Virus record (IMG/VR): IMGVR_UViG_3300044961_000262 | Coordinates: 1-64,000 of that record | Length of the DNA stretch: 64,000 bases | Source: a virus | Reading direction: 5' to 3' (one strand) | Shown here: one piece after another, positions 6,001 through 18,751 of the stretch | Position numbering within the stretch: position 1 is the stretch's first letter | Layout: each line of letters begins with the position of its first letter | Program-made: the position numbers and the translations under genes | The notes under the pieces: model-generated | The model's input: the letters and a program-made list of their open reading frames with translations, nothing else | What the model was told of the DNA's origin: nothing | Database searches by the model: none

Positions 6001-6119
6001 AAGAAGATAAACGTAAAAAAGGACCTGTGGAGAGGGGGATTAAATTAATTCCCGGTGTCAATAAAGTAACTACATTTTTAGAAGATTTAAATGTAATAGA
6101 TTTTGATGATAAAAAGTAG
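3..6119 (+). CDS. Giant virion cargo/ejection (polyvalent-type) protein, 5'-truncated; contains zincin metallopeptidase and PD-(D/E)xK nuclease-like domains
   Basis: Frame is open from position 3, upstream of the listed TTG at 180. HEILH zincin motif at 2184-2198; GTLVH...GTIDLL...FDTKT...QTAIY nuclease-like motifs at ~2800-3155; helical C-terminus with a hydrophobic segment. Position convergent on the replication arm matches crAss-like layout. Confidence 0.7.
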   Translation: MDVSKLDNKNKIAGKKLSIVAERRKLATIKDLENSQLIKNIRVDKSQSKDIKPNQADKNLASIMLYGHRYDDLSNVDYINKNLKTISNPSEMQSEAEVLAYRILNDLLFNIDELNEFYEEIKDNPEYASALTTNENPIKEFFENDIFEESDKIKLENIQSTREQIIADLLANYSYTIEINTAKEKGLKNQKKGYELEQTQNGIWVVINYRTGFNKYFATKKEAIDYINGENQEEINTQIYKDLSARNNNNISKYEGNPDWEYQELKIQVPQVNLTGEVLKHNPFNEPQTIAHARIQYNNKTKTVEVQEFQSDPFQDNKQREFKDENAAKDYAEQLKDIYNDVSIKKINDDIWKVAGRERKDLITSRNLNSSNLEGLQGQTTIREYIDAYRYSLETYDMPDATKEEIDRLVVIEEKELQSKFKPINETINSKDNKFLQLLNKNDVWITVGLKSLIQDSAKKGYEKVLFPVGDTAAKIEGHETVEEFVKNKEERLNDLNREKNKPWSVYNKTKSASYLGFKTKEDAEKYIINNNLVGWNVIKENTSDNIDNEIKQLEKEIEDAKAGRLKISAIYDFYETTIKNILDKNYGKENVNRITDEYGNGWYEIEINEKAKDKILFNKQGKNTNNLSKYFTSDNSSSQKILKQIAELGGGLGTIAKKLLENQLDIPIKLIDVPHFSNETMPKELKDLGIVLKDGFSAAAFYNPSNRTIYVAKNVKFKDSTESTLVHEILHAYTSHYVYSNPNTASVKKLQELVDYLNQPKIKELLRDTYPITNIDELLVGIFTNKKFIEDLKMLPAKNRNFKSVWDEILQVFKVIFGISDKTLFDEVFSSAATVLDESMQQMKSFEDALDVDYILADEAADNTGKQKLISNKLDELQAKVNRNPVDNSVIISGKEEIEWIRPSSEAKGDIQKRSFGLISERQEEFNKLSQEVGTLVHAIQADIIKKNFPEFNKYVPTMEVPENLQEFYASLEKELQPIIDNAKKKGSILKAEVFVGNIRTKKGGTIDLLEITREGNFIIFDTKTRYSEDKTAKRRLNKLIEWTKQTAIYGEILKTGDPELGVVSGKIEGAYILEFEFEKLGEFLNIKFKPTSNGTTASKFLSRRNAKLKITAPLFLRTKNEKLNKNIEFLLRQIDQLSKQKGGTEEQKSQRNKLLQGKLNLLQSLQIKADTEDLIEKAYEDLGDIKTMLSKGVLTDSRFIEEQLSFYSSLKSQIEDIDVNKIQKIKQIMIEAQELMDEYHKLLENIAKSSVKNTQIQDVLDRRGINLNDPIQDSGKMFSMLMTTSSIDDPYIASAVAETNLALSKSRTRLKELFSIIQKKTIAYQKATGLTTYDNMIEDGKLVGEYTKEFWKSYNNAKLAKDFDWAKENLIFDKEKYQEARNRQLNFYEAYRENYRNQLKFKNPEITEIELNKLTEKYIALEMSNWEEANNNSFTYFKAKQKWTNPKYNEIMKGPKEVKELFETFKSLIDYANQIMPDKVKKNFIPSFQKNYIEKLASMNLMSAIPDFMSGLLDSVAMDYDDELFGKRSALTGEKIGELYVPGTGNVADKSLDLPVVFFKFMEGIYRYQELSAIEETVLALKHMVKTRNYLKVDRLGRVIPDSKAPAAPNPAANNLKTFEAYIDSTFYGIKSKDDVGFEVTGNGFTEVLGILKKGDSRKISVAKIVDKLIKYTSIRNLGYNIYSPFVNLGGGTANYYMTGFNGLYYSEKDFTKAMGLALLGKTPNNETGEKVKLIMEWLEADTGEFVKEEQNKLTTAKGLQLIEEFGPMSLMRESENVMRNAGAIAMILSGKHQFKWDDFKVVDGKLEVNTDIMTKEKFRQKVIKINNKNLGGINPDDMMMMKQYIVGRMLMQHRSWLPALFFERFGRKRFDYILEQDIEGRYLTAFRLFKYYFNRSKFKELNEFEKANMKSAAAEMAMLIGTGLLLALLKAGLDDEDEKEVWAKFTKKVSSRVFSELLFFVDPTFESQYAILLNPAPVLGTSGDFGKFVGSLFNDKEEDKRKKGPVERGIKLIPGVNKVTTFLEDLNVIDFDDKK

Positions 6120-6133
6120 GGATTACTCCCTAC
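6111..6133 (-). terminator. Intrinsic terminator at the convergence of the two arms
   Basis: Minus strand GTAGGGA-GTAA-TCCCTAC followed by TTTTT. Confidence 0.75.
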
Positions 6134-6831
6134 CACTTTATCATCGACTTTTCTCCATAATGAAGTTTTAAAAACTCATTAGTTTTACTAAAACAGTTTT
6201 CATGATTCAATTCTCTAGATAATCTACACGCATAAGCAGGATGTTCAACATTTATAATTAAATGATGTTTCTTTAAAGAAGAATTTGTTACTAAGTCTTT
6301 AGCTCCTTGACCAAAAGTAATAATTGCTAAAGGTGAATCATCTATTAATTTTAAAGTTGATTTAATGAAATTTTTCCATCCGTATTCATTATGACTTAAC
6401 GGAGCACTATGTTCAACAGTTAACGCCACATTAAGTAGTAAAACTCCTTGTTCAGCTAAATAAGTTAAATTGTTACGAAATTCAAGTTTAAATCCATTAT
6501 AACAATCGTCTTCAATAGCTCTATGTAATTTAACTAAACTTTTAGGTGTTATATCATTATCATCGGCACTAAAAGCTAAACCATCAGCTACTGGTTTATC
6601 TAAAATCGCAGAATAGGTAGGATATGGATCTTGACCTATTACTACGCAATTCACCGTTTTAGGGTTGGTTAATTCATATGCTTTAAATACTAAATCACTT
6701 TCAGGATATACTCTCGAAACAATTCTTCTTTTAGCAATAATTCCTGCTAGTTTTTTAAAATAATCTTTTTCAAATTCACCTTTTAAATAAGGATACCATT
6801 GACCTAATCTATCTTCAATTGTTCTTTTCAT
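6130..6831 (-). CDS. ung: Uracil-DNA glycosylase, family 1
   Basis: GQDPY, GLAFS, QGVLLLN and HPA motifs. Confidence 0.93.
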   Translation of the reverse strand: MKRTIEDRLGQWYPYLKGEFEKDYFKKLAGIIAKRRIVSRVYPESDLVFKAYELTNPKTVNCVVIGQDPYPTYSAILDKPVADGLAFSADDNDITPKSLVKLHRAIEDDCYNGFKLEFRNNLTYLAEQGVLLLNVALTVEHSAPLSHNEYGWKNFIKSTLKLIDDSPLAIITFGQGAKDLVTNSSLKKHHLIINVEHPAYACRLSRELNHENCFSKTNEFLKLHYGEKSMIKW

Positions 6832-12611: not shown

Positions 12612-13574
12612 TTATTCTTCAATTAATAATTGGTTAATAAGTAATAAATCCGATTCTGTTATTTCTTCAGAAATAGATTCTTCAATTTTTGGTTTTTCAG
12701 ATTTAGTTGGTAATTCATCTAATAATATATATGTGTCAGCTAAATCTCTACTTCCTTCTTTAATATTAAAAAGTTTTAATAAATCATTACTTACTATTTT
12801 ACTAAATAGTTTATTAATTCTATCATAGTCATCAAGACTTTTAATTTCAATTTTTGAAATAAAATTTTCTTCTATAAAATCAAACTTTTTACTGTATTTA
12901 AAATCTATTGTATTTTTTTCACAGAAAGCTTGAATCTCAGATGTTAATAATATATCACTTTCATTTTCTTTTAAATAAACAGTAATTAAATCTTTCCATT
13001 TAATAACGCTTCTAGTTATAAAATTTAATGTAAATTGATATAATTTTTCTGGATTTACTGTTATTATAGCTAAAACTTCATATTCATTAAAGATAACGCC
13101 ATTACTCATACCATATCCTAAATTCTGAAATGTAAATCCAGAATCTAAACATTTTATAAAATACTCTAAAAAATGTAAGCTACTATATTTAGTATATTTG
13201 TGTATATCTAAATTTATAGCTTCAATATAATTAATTGAATTAACTAAACTTTTTATATACGATAATGATGATGAATGATTATCGTTATAGCGACTATTTT
13301 CAAAATTAATATTTAAATCTTCTAACTTTGATAAAAATAAGTTTTTTTGACTTTTAGACCATTTAGTTTTTGGTACAATTTTGGGTAAATAAGTAATTGA
13401 ACTAAAATCAATAAAACATATAGGAAGAACATCTTTATTTAAAAGATTATTATTGCTATCTAAAAATTTAATATTCGGTAAATTATCTCTATAATGTCTT
13501 TTCCAATTTCTTAAATCAGAAGTTAAATTTTCAATATTGAAATCTGATAACGGAGTAATACTATAAGTTCTCAT
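12612..13574 (-). CDS. Hypothetical protein translationally coupled downstream of E1
   Basis: 320 aa; overlaps the E1 stop by 14 nt; no motif recognised. Confidence 0.7.
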   Translation of the reverse strand: MRTYSITPLSDFNIENLTSDLRNWKRHYRDNLPNIKFLDSNNNLLNKDVLPICFIDFSSITYLPKIVPKTKWSKSQKNLFLSKLEDLNINFENSRYNDNHSSSLSYIKSLVNSINYIEAINLDIHKYTKYSSLHFLEYFIKCLDSGFTFQNLGYGMSNGVIFNEYEVLAIITVNPEKLYQFTLNFITRSVIKWKDLITVYLKENESDILLTSEIQAFCEKNTIDFKYSKKFDFIEENFISKIEIKSLDDYDRINKLFSKIVSNDLLKLFNIKEGSRDLADTYILLDELPTKSEKPKIEESISEEITESDLLLINQLLIEE

Positions 13575-14229
13575 AAGTCATAAATTCAAATAATGGTATA
13601 TCGTAAGTTGTTTTAAAGGGAAGTTCTAATATGAAATCCGGATCTTTTTTCATAGTAATATAATTAGTAAAAGCTCCTGTCATTATGGCGGCAATTAACG
13701 CTCCGCTATGAGTTGTAGCTTTTGCAGAACAAGGTTGATCCTGAACTTCATTATCATTGAATAAAGTGGATTCGTATTTTTTTTCTAGTCCTTTCGTAAC
13801 AATATAAATTTGACCTGACTGTAGTAACATTCTGCCGTCAATAAAAATTTCTCTGTTTTCTAAAGCTGACCACTTTTCAAACATTAATTTTCTTGCTGCC
13901 ATATTATCGAATGCACTAAAACATATTGGAGTTACAAAAGAAGAACTTTGAAATTTACCTAAATTTATCATATTAGTTCCTTTACAGAACATATCGTTAT
14001 TAAATTTAGAAGCTTCAAATTTACTTTTACCTACTTGATTATAAGAATATAATTGACCTCCTATATTAGGTTCGTCTATTATATCGTATTCGTAAGTTAT
14101 CATTTTACATTCTAATCTTGATAGAAAAAGGGATAGGTATGATCCTATTCCCCCAATTCCACCAAGAGTTATTTCTGTTCCCGGACTATAGAACGGGGCT
14201 TCAGAAAATCTAACTGTTGTTTCTTTCAT
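13561..14229 (-). CDS. E1-like (ThiF/MoeB family) Ubl-activating enzyme
   Basis: N-terminal RFS Arg finger, GIGGIGS loop, DIIDEPNIGGQ, FDNMAAR, IDGR, candidate catalytic Cys167 (QPCSAK). Confidence 0.9.
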   Translation of the reverse strand: MKETTVRFSEAPFYSPGTEITLGGIGGIGSYLSLFLSRLECKMITYEYDIIDEPNIGGQLYSYNQVGKSKFEASKFNNDMFCKGTNMINLGKFQSSSFVTPICFSAFDNMAARKLMFEKWSALENREIFIDGRMLLQSGQIYIVTKGLEKKYESTLFNDNEVQDQPCSAKATTHSGALIAAIMTGAFTNYITMKKDPDFILELPFKTTYDIPLFEFMTYENL

Positions 14230-15332
14230 TACATTCTCATGCTATATTGTCTTTCAAAATCTGTTTCAATAAAATCTTCAAAAACACTTTCAAAGCATCC
14301 AGTTATTGTAGGTACTACGCTGAAATTTGAATATTGAGTGCTTTCTGTTAAAATTTTGTATCCTTCTTCACACATCGAAATTAAATCTGATTTTCTATCA
14401 TTAAATGTCAATCCTTTTTGTAAATATTCAGAATAAATCATGTTATATTTATAAGAAAAAGTGAAATCATTTGATAAATCTTCTTCACATTTTTCAATAA
14501 ATTTCCAGTTTTTACTATAATGCGATTCGATTTCAGCTAAATGCGCATATAATGTATCTACTTCTTTACAATTAATAAATTTCTTAAAATATTTACGTAA
14601 TAGAAACTTTATAAAATTAATAGCGTTAGTATCTTTACTTAAAGTTGATAAATTAATTTTAGTATTATTCACGTTTTTTTTACTCAATACTGGTTTATTT
14701 GTAGTCTGAATCCTATTAACTTGATTTACAAAGAATTCATCTATTTCTTCAGAATAAAGTACTTCAATGTCCATATTATAATAAAAGACAACTTCTTCTT
14801 CTGAAGATAGTATTTTTTTCATTTTACCGTTTTTACCTTTAAAAATAAATTCTTTCGGTTTTATTTTTCCCATAAAAGCTACTCTAGCTGTCATTTCCAT
14901 TTTATTATTTACAATTAATGATAAATAATAGTCATAGTTTGGAGCATTTTCTTGTAACTCTTCATTGTCGGTACCTGAAAAAAATACCGACATTAGATTA
15001 TGTGAATGCACATGTGAAATACTGTAATTTAGTAGTTCAGGTTTTTCAGTAATTGCATTTATATAATCTTCATTAAATTCATATGAAGTGTATCCTGAAG
15101 TACCTTTATCCATCGGTAAAATGTATTCGGCTTTTAATTCGAAACTTTCAGGTCTGTCAATGAATCCTTTACTTGAATGAAAAAGTACACCTGACCATTC
15201 TACATCTGGAATTTCCGAACATAAAAGTTTAATTTGTTCGTAAACTTTATTAGATATAAGAAGTTTAGGTTTATTTTCCAGAAGATAGAGCTTCGGCAAC
15301 GATTTTTGTAAATTTGACGTAGTTGAGTTCAT
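14229..15332 (-). CDS. JAB/JAMM metallo-isopeptidase with C-terminal extension
   Basis: E45 (EWSG) ... H109-S-H111-x7-S119-x2-D122, the canonical JAMM motif. Confidence 0.88.
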   Translation of the reverse strand: MNSTTSNLQKSLPKLYLLENKPKLLISNKVYEQIKLLCSEIPDVEWSGVLFHSSKGFIDRPESFELKAEYILPMDKGTSGYTSYEFNEDYINAITEKPELLNYSISHVHSHNLMSVFFSGTDNEELQENAPNYDYYLSLIVNNKMEMTARVAFMGKIKPKEFIFKGKNGKMKKILSSEEEVVFYYNMDIEVLYSEEIDEFFVNQVNRIQTTNKPVLSKKNVNNTKINLSTLSKDTNAINFIKFLLRKYFKKFINCKEVDTLYAHLAEIESHYSKNWKFIEKCEEDLSNDFTFSYKYNMIYSEYLQKGLTFNDRKSDLISMCEEGYKILTESTQYSNFSVVPTITGCFESVFEDFIETDFERQYSMRM

Positions 15333-16533
15333 TTAATTTTGTGTTTATTTGTTTAATAATATAATTTTTAATTTTAGGGTGAGCTATCAAAGTAGAATAA
15401 TCTATTAAAGATTTAGTTTCTTTTTCTTTATCGGAAATTCCTGAATAAATTTTTAAGTCTATATATTTTTCTTTAAACTTTTCTAATAAATTTATTGTGT
15501 TTACACATTTATATTCCTCATATTTTTCATTAGAAAAGATTTCAAAATTTCCTTGAGAAAGTTCTTTACCTATAACTGTTGAAATTTTATTAATTAGAGG
15601 GGTAATTAAATTAACATCTACTTCTAATTTATTTTTTACAAGATTATATGTAAGAAACAATTCATTTTTATATCTTATGAGAAATCTTTTTAAATTTTTT
15701 TTTAAAATTATATTAGATAAGTTTAATCCAGTATTATCACCTATAGATTGAATTCTAATATAAGGCCCTCCTTCTAAAGATTCCCATCTAACATAGGCAT
15801 CTAAAGTTGTAAAAAATGAAAGAATGAGTTCATCCGAATCAAGCTTTATATGTCTAAAATTGCTTATTGGGGTATTTTCACCTAAACAAAAATTATGATA
15901 TGAGGTACTATTTCTTGGACGCAAATGTGAATGCAAATAATTTGAATTATATTCCTTTAAACTAAGATGTCCTCTCAATCCTTTTATATTTGAAATACAA
16001 CCTTCTTCAAGATTTAAATTTACATAAAGTTCTTTTATTAAATGCTTTTTACCATGACTATTTTCAATAATAATTTCAGGATATAATATTGTAAAGTCAA
16101 ATTCATTAAAATCTACAAATTCTTCACCATAATATTCAACGGCTAATCTTTTAATATTATTAAATACTTTTTTTGATTCATTATTTATATGATCTAAATA
16201 GTTTTTTATATCTTTTTCAAGTGATTCTTCTGTATATCCTGAATTTGTATTTTCATTTGTTTTGTAGTCATAATTAATATTGTACAAAACGTTAATATCT
16301 AAAATATTTTTTACAGACAATGTTATATTACCTGAGTTTACATAATATATCGAATTAGATTCATAATTATCAAAAAAATGTATTTTGTCTAAATTATCTT
16401 CTGAATAATTATTTAAAACAAATTCTTTAAATTTTACACAAACAGAAATGTATTCATCATCTTCGTTTTTTTCTGACACTACTATAAATATTTCACTAAA
16501 ATAATTTTCATCAAAACTTCGAAGTAATCTCAT
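15271..16533 (-). CDS. Prokaryotic E2-like (UBC fold) conjugating enzyme
   Basis: YLHSHL (HxH flap) followed by FC216LG, then ESLEGGPY; lies between Ubl and JAB. Confidence 0.72.
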   Translation of the reverse strand: MRLLRSFDENYFSEIFIVVSEKNEDDEYISVCVKFKEFVLNNYSEDNLDKIHFFDNYESNSIYYVNSGNITLSVKNILDINVLYNINYDYKTNENTNSGYTEESLEKDIKNYLDHINNESKKVFNNIKRLAVEYYGEEFVDFNEFDFTILYPEIIIENSHGKKHLIKELYVNLNLEEGCISNIKGLRGHLSLKEYNSNYLHSHLRPRNSTSYHNFCLGENTPISNFRHIKLDSDELILSFFTTLDAYVRWESLEGGPYIRIQSIGDNTGLNLSNIILKKNLKRFLIRYKNELFLTYNLVKNKLEVDVNLITPLINKISTVIGKELSQGNFEIFSNEKYEEYKCVNTINLLEKFKEKYIDLKIYSGISDKEKETKSLIDYSTLIAHPKIKNYIIKQINTKLNELNYVKFTKIVAEALSSGK

Positions 16534-16546
16534 ATTTTTTTTTTAT

Positions 16547-16579
16547 AAAAAAAAAGAGAGAAATTAATCTCTCTTTTTT
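16547..16579 (-). terminator. Terminator-like hairpin between Ubl and E2
   Basis: A9-GAGAGA-AATTAA-TCTCTC-T6; bidirectional. Confidence 0.7.
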
Positions 16580-16591
16580 ATTTTAATTTAA

Positions 16592-16981
16592 TTATTTTAA
16601 TTCATCAGCTAATCTTTTTAATTCAGCAATGCTGATATCATCGGTTTCTTGCGGATCACCGAATTCTCCAGATTCAACTTCATCGATAATTTCATCAAAA
16701 GCATTGTTGATTTTTTCACGTAAAGAAACCATTAAATCTACAATACTTAACGATCCCGATTTAACGCTAATAGGAGTTGCTATAATAGTTAAATCTCCTG
16801 TAAATAATTCCGCAGCAGCAGCTTCTAACGTTACTTTTCCTGGAATCATTGTGTATTTTAAAGTAGACTCTAAAAGTTCTTTATCTCTTAATGTTTCACG
16901 TAATTCTCCCCAAGTAGTAGCTGAAGAATTAAATGTTTCTTTTTTATTCTTTGATTGAATAAATACTGTTATTTTTCTCAT
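16592..16981 (-). CDS. Ubiquitin-like (beta-grasp) protein precursor: 76-aa domain ending VKSG plus a 53-aa acidic tail
   Basis: Beta-beta-alpha pattern (RKITVF, ETFNS, TWGELRETL), terminal strand LTIIATP, Gly at residue 76; first gene of the E2-JAB-E1 cluster. Confidence 0.75.
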   Translation of the reverse strand: MRKITVFIQSKNKKETFNSSATTWGELRETLRDKELLESTLKYTMIPGKVTLEAAAAELFTGDLTIIATPISVKSGSLSIVDLMVSLREKINNAFDEIIDEVESGEFGDPQETDDISIAELKRLADELK

Positions 16982-17951
16982 TGTTAATTAATTTTTTTGT
17001 TAGTTCTTCTCCATGAAGATAATAAAAGTCGGATATATCTTTGGCACCAAGATATCCCTTTTTTCTTGCCCATAATTTTTCAGTTAAAAAAAGAGGTTTA
17101 GTTCCGTAACTTTTTCTCATTTGCCAACCAAAGTGTATTCCTGCATTATCATAATCAGATAAAGTAAAAATGTTCTTGCTTATTTTTTCTAAATCTTTCA
17201 TTTGATTTTCAGTTAATATTACGCTTTCTGCTTGTGGAGCTACAGAAGGTATATTAAACTTATGTAAAGTTCCTACATCTTTGTAAGACTTCGTGATTAC
17301 TAAAAAGTCACATTTTTTAGGTAATAAATGTTTACCCTGTAAAGTTTCCTTAGATACGTTACCTAAAAATCTATACTCTTTTCTTTTAAAAAAATAAAAT
17401 TTCCATTTATTATTGTCAAAATAATATCCAATACAAGGATCTTCGTCACGATAATAATATATTAATCGTCCATTATCATCCCATATTTTGTCAATATAAA
17501 ACCATTTAGCGAGTTTTATAAACTCTGATGTAACACCATAAAATTTACAAAAATTTACACCAATGTTATTAAATTTTTTAACTTTAACTTTAAAACTCTT
17601 ATCGATTTTATTTAAGGATGGTTTTTTAATAATAATATTTTTAGTCGGTATATTTTTAAGATAAAATACTTCATAAATCTTTTGTAAAGCTTTATAATAA
17701 GATAAATTATCTACTTCCATAACTACAGAAACGCAAGTGTAAGTTTTGTTTATTGCAAAATCTTTAAAAAATAAGACTCCCGCATTCCAATAGAAACTAC
17801 ATCCAACTTTATTATCAACTCTTAAAGGATTAGTAAATTTTTCTGTTAAAGAACAGAACCCTAGATATTTCTCATAAACTTCTTCTTGACTGACTCTATC
17901 AAAGAGCCAGTCAAAAGAAATTTCAAGCGGTATTTCGGGGTATCCGTACAT
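16944..17951 (-). CDS. DNA primase (DnaG-like, TOPRIM)
   Basis: NPLRVD..VGC N-terminal region; VITKSYKDV, APQAE, DYDNAG and KDISD motifs typical of crAss-like primases. Confidence 0.85.
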   Translation of the reverse strand: MYGYPEIPLEISFDWLFDRVSQEEVYEKYLGFCSLTEKFTNPLRVDNKVGCSFYWNAGVLFFKDFAINKTYTCVSVVMEVDNLSYYKALQKIYEVFYLKNIPTKNIIIKKPSLNKIDKSFKVKVKKFNNIGVNFCKFYGVTSEFIKLAKWFYIDKIWDDNGRLIYYYRDEDPCIGYYFDNNKWKFYFFKRKEYRFLGNVSKETLQGKHLLPKKCDFLVITKSYKDVGTLHKFNIPSVAPQAESVILTENQMKDLEKISKNIFTLSDYDNAGIHFGWQMRKSYGTKPLFLTEKLWARKKGYLGAKDISDFYYLHGEELTKKLINNEKNNSIYSIKE

Positions 17952-17962
17952 TCTTTTTTTTA

Positions 17963-18499
17963 CTAAAAATCTAAATCAGCATTACTGGCGGTAATTTCAG
18001 CTTCTGACGAAGCATTAACTGATTTAATCAATTTAGGTTCTTCAGATTTACTAATACTTAAAGTAGGTTCTTTCATGTTTTTAACAGTTGGGTCATATTT
18101 AGGCATTTCTAAATATCCTTTATCGTTATAAAGTAATTTGATTTGCAACTTAGTAGTAGCATAATTACCTAATGAACGAATAAATGATGTAGCACAATCT
18201 TCCCAAGAATTAAAATTTGTTTGAAATTCATTTCCTGTAACTTCTTTTACGATGCGTTTAAGACGTTTCATTTGAGAAATAATCTTTTTTTCGTCATTAT
18301 CTGTTACTGGAAATTCAGTATGAGTATAGGTTTGACCCAACTCACCTTCAAATGTAATTCTTATTACGGTTTTGTCGGATGTTCCATCTTTTTTAGCATT
18401 TTCAAATGCTACTGTTTTAATTACTACATTGTTGTTAATACCCACATCAAATAGTGGGGTATCTCTGTTTAACTCAACGTTGTTTGCTCCGTATGACAT
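17963..18499 (-). CDS. Putative single-stranded DNA-binding protein
   Basis: Beta-rich, acidic/aromatic C-terminus (ADLDF); located between primase and AAA ATPase. Confidence 0.6.
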   Translation of the reverse strand: MSYGANNVELNRDTPLFDVGINNNVVIKTVAFENAKKDGTSDKTVIRITFEGELGQTYTHTEFPVTDNDEKKIISQMKRLKRIVKEVTGNEFQTNFNSWEDCATSFIRSLGNYATTKLQIKLLYNDKGYLEMPKYDPTVKNMKEPTLSISKSEEPKLIKSVNASSEAEITASNADLDF

Positions 18500-18508
18500 A
18501 TTCTAAAA

Positions 18509-18751
18509 TTAAATCGATGATTCTTGAACAGGTTGGTCATTAAAGATTTCTTCATTACTAGTGTTAGTAATTACTTCATCTACAATAGAATAACGTTTTT
18601 CACGTTTCTTCTTAATTGTAAGATTAAGCTGTTTAGCTATATCTCTAATTTCTCTTTCACTCAATTGCCATTTTTCGGCAAGTTCTTTAGAACTTAATTC
18701 GTTGTTTACGTCAGCAGTAAACGCTGCTTTTGTTACGATAATTTTACTCAT
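18509..18751 (-). CDS. Small HTH-like protein
   Basis: SSKELAEKWQLSEREIRDIAKQL helix-turn-helix pattern. Confidence 0.55.
   Translation of the reverse strand: MSKIIVTKAAFTADVNNELSSKELAEKWQLSEREIRDIAKQLNLTIKKKREKRYSIVDEVITNTSNEEIFNDQPVQESSI

Follow-up and report, generated by a model that had tools for sequence, protein, structure and literature searches.

The minus strand of a 64,000-nucleotide stretch of DNA of a crAss-like phage (IMG/VR record IMGVR_UViG_3300044961_000262, positions 1 to 64,000; hereafter the window) carries at 16592–16981 an open reading frame (ORF) of 129 amino acids (aa) with an ATG start. Our analysis suggests that its product is probably the precursor of a ubiquitin-like protein (Ubl), which would be cut after Gly76 by the JAB protease of the same gene cassette, and whose glycine would be adenylated by the E1 enzyme of the cassette only afterwards. 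A role of the JAB protease in maturation had been proposed in a first-pass annotation of the window, and it is supported at the level of sequence and model by the K-[S/A]-G end of the domain, the intact JAMM motif of the protease, the linkage of the cassette genes in 18 of 18 loci with sufficient flank, and a model of the JAB–Ubl complex. From these we infer the cut itself, as well as every chemical step of the proposed pathway.

Results

Conservation of the glycine terminus

The ORF and its codons place the two parts of the protein where the first-pass annotation had put them, namely a 76-aa domain ending in KSG (residues 1–76, 16754–16981) and a 53-aa tail (residues 77–129, 16595–16753), followed by the stop codon at 16592–16594, all on the minus strand. 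The codons gtt aaa tcg gga tcg encode V73, K74, S75, G76, and S77, with the G76 codon at 16754–16756. On the basis of conservation and the complex model, K74-S75-G76 (16754–16762, minus strand) is the putative mature C-terminus and G76/S77 the putative JAB site.

An exhaustive profile search for relatives (E ≤ 0.001) returned 194 proteins, and the 150 listed ones were used as the base; a word-index search gave no longer relatives, a miss of sensitivity, where the exhaustive search gave many. After removal of P0137 (946 aa), which had eight short match stretches and lacked the glycine column, and addition of the window protein, its close relatives, and gp53 of Flavobacterium phage FpV4, the resulting set of 153 sequences was aligned with hmmalign. 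Glycine occupied the G76 column in all 153 members, the conservation on which the first-pass annotation had staked its reading, and lysine stood at position −2 in 146. The residue at −1 was serine in 125 members and alanine in 24 (149 together) and glycine in only 1, which bears out the earlier description of a single-glycine rather than a Gly-Gly terminus. Just past the glycine, 18 residue identities occurred across the 153 members, and no member terminated at the glycine itself. A separate MAFFT alignment of 94 homologues gave G76 as the sole invariant column, with K74 at least 90% conserved. Among four close relatives (68–79% identical), invariant positions numbered 52 of 76 in the domain and 20 of 53 in the tail. 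An invariant glycine followed by any of 18 residues is what a scissile or terminal glycine would show, and it speaks for a Ubl precursor that is probably trimmed. The alignment agrees with the earlier expectation that a K-x-G would precede a variable tail: almost every member has K-[S/A]-G, and the tails range from 1 to 232 aa. The tail is not simply variable, since its ends are conserved.

Predicted fold of the ubiquitin-like domain

Assignment of residues 1–76 to the ubiquitin fold (beta-grasp) rests on AlphaFold2, Foldseek, and VIA. With four input sequences, AlphaFold2 gave a predicted local distance difference test (pLDDT) of 63; with the 94-sequence alignment it gave 84.7, and this second model was used. 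It has a beta-beta-alpha-beta-beta core (residues 2–70), with a pLDDT of 94–96 over residues 1–70, followed by a flexible stretch at residues 71–80, where the pLDDT falls to 61. The best Foldseek matches in the PDB were ubiquitin and Ubls (probability 1.00; template modelling (TM) score by target 0.56–0.69). The top match was 8hm1_A, the ubiquitin of Bacteroides fragilis (E 8.6e-4, TM by target 0.63), and ubiquitin itself and SUMO were also among the best matches; the alignments spanned 73–81 columns. VIA-align gave Z scores of 7.9–9.2 for ubiquitin-fold domains, and 1ubq was superposed with Z 7.9 and a root-mean-square deviation of 2.8 over 70 aligned residues, residues 2–75 of the model matching 1–76 of 1ubq. 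These comparisons of models indicate that residues 1–76 have a predicted ubiquitin-like fold with the same end point as ubiquitin. In a library of viral structures, the nearest models belonged to unnamed proteins from Flavobacterium phage Fpv3 and from the uncultured crAss-like gut phages cr106_1, cr111_1, and cr126_1, and the ubiquitins of giant viruses and baculoviruses came next.

By sequence, the Ubl matched little of what is in the family databases. The window protein matched no Pfam family, no Pfam family was matched by more than 2 of the 94 members, and ThiS was not among the 25 Pfam families shown for these members. The only PHROGs match was to the unnamed phrog_15560, at positions 9–86 of a 289-position profile. 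NCBIfam gave a chance-level match only, PADLOC gave none, and the best E-value of the Ubl profile against PDB sequences was 0.17.

Model of the JAB–Ubl complex

The complex was predicted from JAB residues 1–200, the whole Ubl, and a zinc ion in three runs, together with three controls. The interface score ipSAE was 0.76 (0.75–0.77 between runs) against 0.02 for the best control. For comparison, 58 of 80 solved complexes and 2 of 110 mismatched pairs score this high; the calibration is only approximate here, since the prediction relied on alignments of our own and included a zinc ion. The runs agreed in at least 90% of contacts, and the partner pLDDT was at least 80. In the confident contacts, JAB residues 45, 109, 111, 119, and 122 meet Ubl residues 69–78; the tail beyond residue 78 was not in the list of confident contacts. 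The model supports binding of the predicted Ubl to JAB in the expected pose, not cleavage as such.

Linkage to E2-like, JAB, and E1 genes

The window Ubl alone retrieved no relative from IMG/VR, and 28 IMG/VR loci were retrieved with a 16-sequence sub-alignment. A primase homologue lay upstream of the Ubl gene in all 28. Wherever the flank reached at least 3.6 kb (18 loci), genes for the E2-like, JAB, and E1 proteins lay downstream, in 17 of these loci by BLASTP and in L025 by profile; the remaining 10 loci were cut off by contig ends. The same gene order was found in phage FpV4 (gp53 to gp50) and in Bacteroides phage crAss001 (gp79 to gp76), whose JAB and E1 proteins are annotated as “metalloprotease domain” and “thiamine biosynthesis protein”, respectively. 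Homologues of the E1 occurred in 74 phage records, including 29 Flavobacterium phages, 29 Bacteroides crAss-like phages, and 12 entries labelled “uncultured”. The Ubl family is large, unannotated, and apparently virus-borne. A scan of 185,579 species genomes with one narrow pattern, which gives no measure of the range of the family, returned a single locus, L031.

The acidic tail

The first-pass annotation had described the tail as acidic, amphipathic, and helical, and each of these properties was recovered by calculation or prediction. Residues 77–129 contain 15 aspartate or glutamate and 5 lysine or arginine residues, giving a net charge of −10. AlphaFold2 predicts two amphipathic helices on this minus-strand segment: helix 1 at residues 80–103 (16673–16744; pLDDT 82–88) and helix 2 at residues 118–128, at the extreme C-terminus (16598–16630). 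Their hydrophobic moments exceeded those of shuffled sequences (helix 1, 0.48 against 0.21±0.10, with 1.1% of shuffles as high; helix 2, 0.64 against 0.35±0.16, with 3.5% as high).

Across the 153 members the tail had a median length of 66 aa. Of the tails of at least 20 aa (n = 145), 85.5% were net negative, with a mean charge of −8.7. Tails of 1–5 aa were found in 7 of the 153 members. At one IMG/VR locus, L024, a 77-aa Ubl ends K-T-K-S-G-K-stop and is followed by a hairpin comparable to that of the window and, 57 nucleotides (nt) on, by the E2-like gene; this locus, with its 1-aa tail, carries the complete E2-like, JAB, and E1 set. L024 is the only short-tailed gene checked on DNA, and P0065, P0081, P0083, P0087, P0094, P0095, and P0151 are known as library proteins only. 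Because such short tails exist in these members and at L024, the tail appears dispensable, and the sequences indicate that it is not essential to the cassette.

Conservation within the tail was assessed on the 135 tails of 45 aa or longer: a hidden Markov model trained on one half was used to score the other, with the 99th percentile of shuffled sequences as the mark. The first 25 tail residues exceeded the mark in 79 of 135 held-out long tails, the last 25 in 75, and the middle 25 in 44; kinship among the sequences raises these counts somewhat. In the alignment, long-tailed members have common motifs past the glycine and at the extreme C-terminus, and gp79 of crAss001 has the same layout. When 28 tails were compared by phmmer with every ORF of 30 aa or more in the loci, no stand-alone tail gene turned up outside the Ubl genes. 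The commonest Pfam match of the long-tailed proteins, the SAP/HeH DNA-binding motif (4 of 57), was rejected as a feature of the tail: the located match (P0050, E 0.088) sits at residues 25–43, within the beta-grasp helix, and SAP was absent in 9 of 10 proteins scanned one by one.

Neighbouring genes of the window

The gene upstream of the Ubl ORF encodes a DNA primase (16944–17951; phrog_12622 at 2.8e-25), and its 3′ end overlaps the start of the Ubl gene by 38 nt. Downstream lie the genes for the E2-like protein (15271–16533, 420 aa), which matches phrog_15310 and has an invariant cysteine, the JAB/JAMM metalloprotease (14229–15332, 367 aa), which has invariant JAMM residues and a C-terminal extension, and a minimal E1 of the ThiF-type adenylating enzymes (13561–14229, 222 aa), assigned by Pfam ThiF. 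All four genes are on the minus strand. A hairpin at 16550–16579, to which no strand was assigned, lies between the Ubl stop and the E2-like start and consists of a 12-bp palindrome with A and T runs; it is the only terminator-like site in 13000–18600. The hairpin might hold Ubl transcripts in excess over those of the enzymes.

In the E2-like protein, H201, S202, H203, F215, C216, G218, E251, S252, and G255 are invariant in 19 sequences. In JAB, E45, H109, S110, H111, S119, and D122 are invariant in 20 sequences and conform to the JAMM motif E...H-x-H-x(7)-S-x(2)-D. The E1 has a single ThiF match in Pfam, over residues 20–193 (40.5 bits against a cut-off of 28.1), and its G23–G29 loop, D49, D108, N109, R113, D131, R133, and C167 are invariant in 18 sequences. 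Its nearest solved relatives by sequence are MccB (2.7e-9) and UBA5 (3.3e-9), with PaaA at 6.1e-8.

Some features of these genes lie outside the catalytic domains. The extension of JAB is about 170 aa long (residues ~200–367, window 14229–14730); its middle is of low complexity, and its end is helical and conserved. The 19-sequence alignment shows flanking regions of about 115 and 135 aa in the E2-like protein. The JAB extension or the E2-like flanks could bind the Ubl tail or substrates. The E2-like and JAB genes overlap by 62 nt (15271–15332, longest-ORF starts), as such genes also do in the FpV4 annotation, the JAB stop and E1 start overlap by 1 nt (14229), and the E1 gene overlaps the next ORF by 14 nt (13561–13574). 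These overlaps suggest translational coupling, and some of them may be start-codon miscalls. For the next ORF, of 320 aa (12612–13574), BLASTP gave no relative at E ≤ 1e-3 in FpV4 or any of the 28 IMG/VR loci; its sole Pfam match is to Latrotoxin_C and is sub-threshold (E 5e-4, 20.3 bits against 25). The slot after E1 seems variable.

Three loci depart from the form seen in the window. The annotated coding sequence of crAss001 gp76 (locus L030, 5560–6711) encodes an E1 of 383 aa against 222 aa in the window; the match to the window E1 covers locus positions 6001–6675 only, which corresponds to an N-terminal extension of about 147 aa. At L022 (10428–11419), the E1 gene is interrupted right after the invariant D-G-R (D131-G132-R133) by an insert of about 1 kb, whose 271-aa ORF resembles by eye a LAGLIDADG-type homing endonuclease; the insert is probably an intron. 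L031 (CAZEMX010000008.1, a 41.6-kb contig) is filed under a metagenome-assembled genome of an uncultured Nitrososphaerota archaeon, and it shares an almost identical Ubl tail with L022 (phmmer 5.5e-60). L031 is probably a mis-binned phage contig.

Discussion

Proposed maturation of the precursor

E1 enzymes require a free C-terminal carboxylate. In the protein encoded in the window, the 53 residues past G76 would block the carboxylate needed by E1, and therefore the neighbouring protease most likely must trim the tail first, much as happens in the ubiquitin systems of cells. We propose that the JAMM protease (14229–15332) binds the beta-grasp domain, draws residues 69–78 through the zinc site, and cleaves the G76–S77 bond. 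The 222-aa E1 would then adenylate G76, and the Ubl would be handed on to cysteine C167 in E1 or C216 in the E2-like protein before its attachment to targets. The same JAB could also strip the Ubl off its targets. Of the features of a conjugatable modifier, the window protein has a modelled beta-grasp fold, an invariant glycine at the end of the fold that could become the C-terminus, and a linked gene for a putative cognate E1.

Several observations weigh against this proposal. A ubiquitin fold, here a modelled one, would not by itself prove a modifier role, and in the VIA comparison the non-conjugated FERM (Z 9.2), DIX (Z 8.9), and UBX (Z 8.6) domains scored level with or slightly above ubiquitin. 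The finding that none of 153 members ends at the glycine would also be expected of an internal hinge, and the conserved ends of the tail, as read from sequence comparison, may point to a protein that works intact. The high score of the complex model, besides its approximate calibration, may reflect likeness to known structures, as JAB–ubiquitin complexes have been solved. The window JAB scored 13.7 bits against the Prok-JAB model (PF14464; gathering cut-off 25); this model matched 18 of 20 JAB members at E ≤ 0.1 (best 7.9e-4), all under the curated cut-off, and the JAB profile had no relevant match among PDB sequences. None of the 19 E2-like members had a Pfam match, and no match was found among PDB sequences. 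In the ESM Atlas, the three best named clusters for residues 115–285 of this protein (0.90, 0.88, and 0.88) were viral, with Prok-E2_D in 11–27% of their members, and the Atlas model of this region gave TM scores of 0.53/0.49 with a UQ_con cluster; the E2 fold of the 420-aa protein is only a lead. The genomic context is a limited base, covering the 28 IMG/VR loci, FpV4, and crAss001.

A protein that is never cut would account for some of these observations. It would be a ubiquitin-fold adaptor, like UBX, UBL, or DIX domains, joined by a K-S/A-G hinge to an acidic helical effector tail, and the enzymes of the cassette would act elsewhere or merely bind it. The non-conjugated domains at the top of the VIA comparison, the lack of any member ending at the glycine, the conserved ends of the long tails (79 and 75 of 135), and the absence of a stand-alone tail gene from the loci all fit such an adaptor. 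However, the effector would have to be dispensable, given the tails of 1–5 aa and the full cassette of L024 with its 1-aa tail, and a hinge does not fit well with a glycine that is the sole invariant column and is followed by any of 18 identities. An E1 and a JAB that is catalytically intact by its residues are invariably linked to the gene, and the complex model sets residues 69–78 in the JAB active site. We consider an uncut adaptor unlikely.

Slightly less probable still is a sulfur carrier, in which the cut Ubl would bear on G76 a thiocarboxylate like that of ThiS or MoaD and would serve thio-modification instead of protein tagging. JAB-processed sulfur carriers exist, such as CysO/Mec+ and QbsE/QbsD. 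The E1 of the window has the minimal size of ThiF/MoeB and its best family matches are ThiF models, and MoaD is among the fold matches of the Ubl (5mpo_A, Z 8.0). In contrast to the Gly-Gly of ThiS and MoaD, however, the residue before the terminal glycine is serine or alanine in nearly the whole family, and a Pfam search of the cassette proteins turned up neither a rhodanese nor a desulfurase domain. In addition, the cassette always includes a third protein, whose cysteine is invariant and which has E2-family leads. In favour of a sulfur carrier, gene neighbourhoods with JAB, E1, and ThiS/MoaD have been described in sulfur assimilation (Iyer et al. 2006, PMC1779556). A sulfur carrier would dispute only the steps after cleavage, not the precursor itself.

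Finally, peptide chemistry of the MccB/PaaA type on the C-terminus of the tail itself, with G76 not a substrate, is very improbable: MccB and PaaA are among the best solved matches of the E1 and the last 25 residues are conserved in many long tails, but UBA5 is an equally good match, tails of 1–5 aa exist, and the last residue of the 145 tails of at least 20 aa takes 18 identities (L 27, R 15, F 14), which leaves no fixed terminal residue for an adenylating enzyme.

Role of the tail

In the precursor that we favor, the tail would be mainly a removable cap that makes activation dependent on the protease. The first-pass annotation had offered two roles for the released tail, a second functional product or a safety cap. 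A cap or an accessory role fits the data better, whereas an indispensable second product fits less well with members that have tails of 1–5 aa. The conservation of its amphipathic ends suggests that the tail has a further part in docking or regulation, with which some phages dispense. It is conceivable, if rather doubtful, that the tail is a module for targeting and timing, whose conserved ends dock the inert precursor on a partner so that the cut by JAB frees the Ubl at the site of conjugation. For such a module, the docking partner may be the replisome, a host protein, or the extra domains of JAB or the E2-like protein; the propeptide may substitute for the E3 that the cassette is without, and phages with tails of 1–5 aa may have lost or outsourced targeting.

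Comparison with known systems

The cassette resembles the bacterial anti-phage system Bil (BilABCD) in that Ubl, E2, JAB, and E1 genes stand side by side and the reactive glycine is not terminal, as described by Chambers et al. (PMC10557695); there, BilC cuts BilA between Gly97 and Ala98 and also cuts a BilA–GFP fusion. In contrast to Bil, which is found in bacterial defence islands, the present cassette is in a phage replication module, and its long tails (median 66 aa, at most 232 aa) are conserved at their ends. Its E1 is a single adenylation domain of 222 aa, whereas the E1 of Bil is IAD-AAD-CYS according to Ye et al. (PMC11601596). The Ubl, E2-like, and JAB proteins had no match in PADLOC-DB 2.0.0, a release in which the presence of Bil models is unconfirmed.

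In type I Bub operons, BubCD frees a functional Ubl from the BubAB fusion by cleavage (Ye et al., PMC11601596). As in Bub, the Ubl of the window is made fused to a C-terminal partner that would be released by the peptidase of its own operon, the cut being a prediction here. The two differ in that Bub joins its Ubl to a large partner, the E2-like BubB, and has peptidase and E1 in one fusion, whereas here a short acidic helical tail is combined with three separate genes.

The TAPI proteins of phages lambda and T1 have an N-terminal Ubl domain extending to a conserved glycine, a linker, and a C-terminal part, and the neighbouring TAPK JAB has been predicted to cut them at this glycine (Iyer, Burroughs and Aravind 2006, PMC1779556). 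The window protein likewise is a phage protein with a Ubl domain, a conserved glycine, and a further C-terminal part. TAPI, however, belongs to a tail-assembly module with TAPK (JAB and NlpC/P60) and TAPJ and without E1 or E2, whereas the gene in the window lies in a replication module, between the primase gene and those for the E2-like, JAB, and E1 proteins.

The eukaryotic-type comparison is with UFM1, the single-glycine terminus of which becomes free once a short C-terminal extension is taken off, and which is served by a minimal homodimeric E1 (UBA5) and by UFC1. The UFM1 proteases (UfSP) are cysteine proteases, not JAMM enzymes. The present family shares the single-glycine end, and UBA5 is among the best solved matches of its E1; Pfam and PDB profile searches found no sequence relation between the Ubl and UFM1. 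Lastly, the PRTRC cassettes of plasmids and integrative elements (TIGR03735, TIGR03736) also combine JAB, a ThiF-type E1, an E2-like protein, and a small Ubl. PRTRC_A and PRTRC_ThiF were among the best, though weak, NCBIfam matches for the JAB and E1 of the window, with scores far under the cut-offs (PRTRC_A, 13.6 against 101.8 bits; PRTRC_ThiF, 25.1 against 144.75 bits), and the Ubl had no match to the PRTRC models of NCBIfam. By sequence, the window Ubl is not a member of PRTRC, ThiS/MoaD, or TAPI, and PADLOC gave no sequence link to Bil.

Significance

Trimming of a capped Ubl by the protease of its own operon is already known from experiments on BilA/BilC and BubAB/BubCD. What is new here is an unannotated, apparently virus-borne family with a single-glycine K-S/A-G end, in which all 153 members are capped and the long acidic tails have conserved ends. 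In the literature searched, which did not include subscription journals and supplements, no paper described this cassette for FpV4-like or crAss-like phages; a 2026 preprint mentions in passing a gut-phage family with a structural match to UBA5.

What is understood of prokaryotic Ubl tagging so far comes from cells and from bacterial anti-phage defence (Bil, Bub, and type II CBASS). The present Ubl is carried by cultured phages, as gp79 of crAss001 and gp53 of FpV4. Given the K-S-G end, trypsin should leave on modified lysines a Ser-Gly remnant of ~144.05 Da, as calculated from the residue masses, which would permit a proteomic search for targets in crAss001-infected Bacteroides. If the C-terminal cap is obligate, activation of the tag would be timed by the phage’s own protease.

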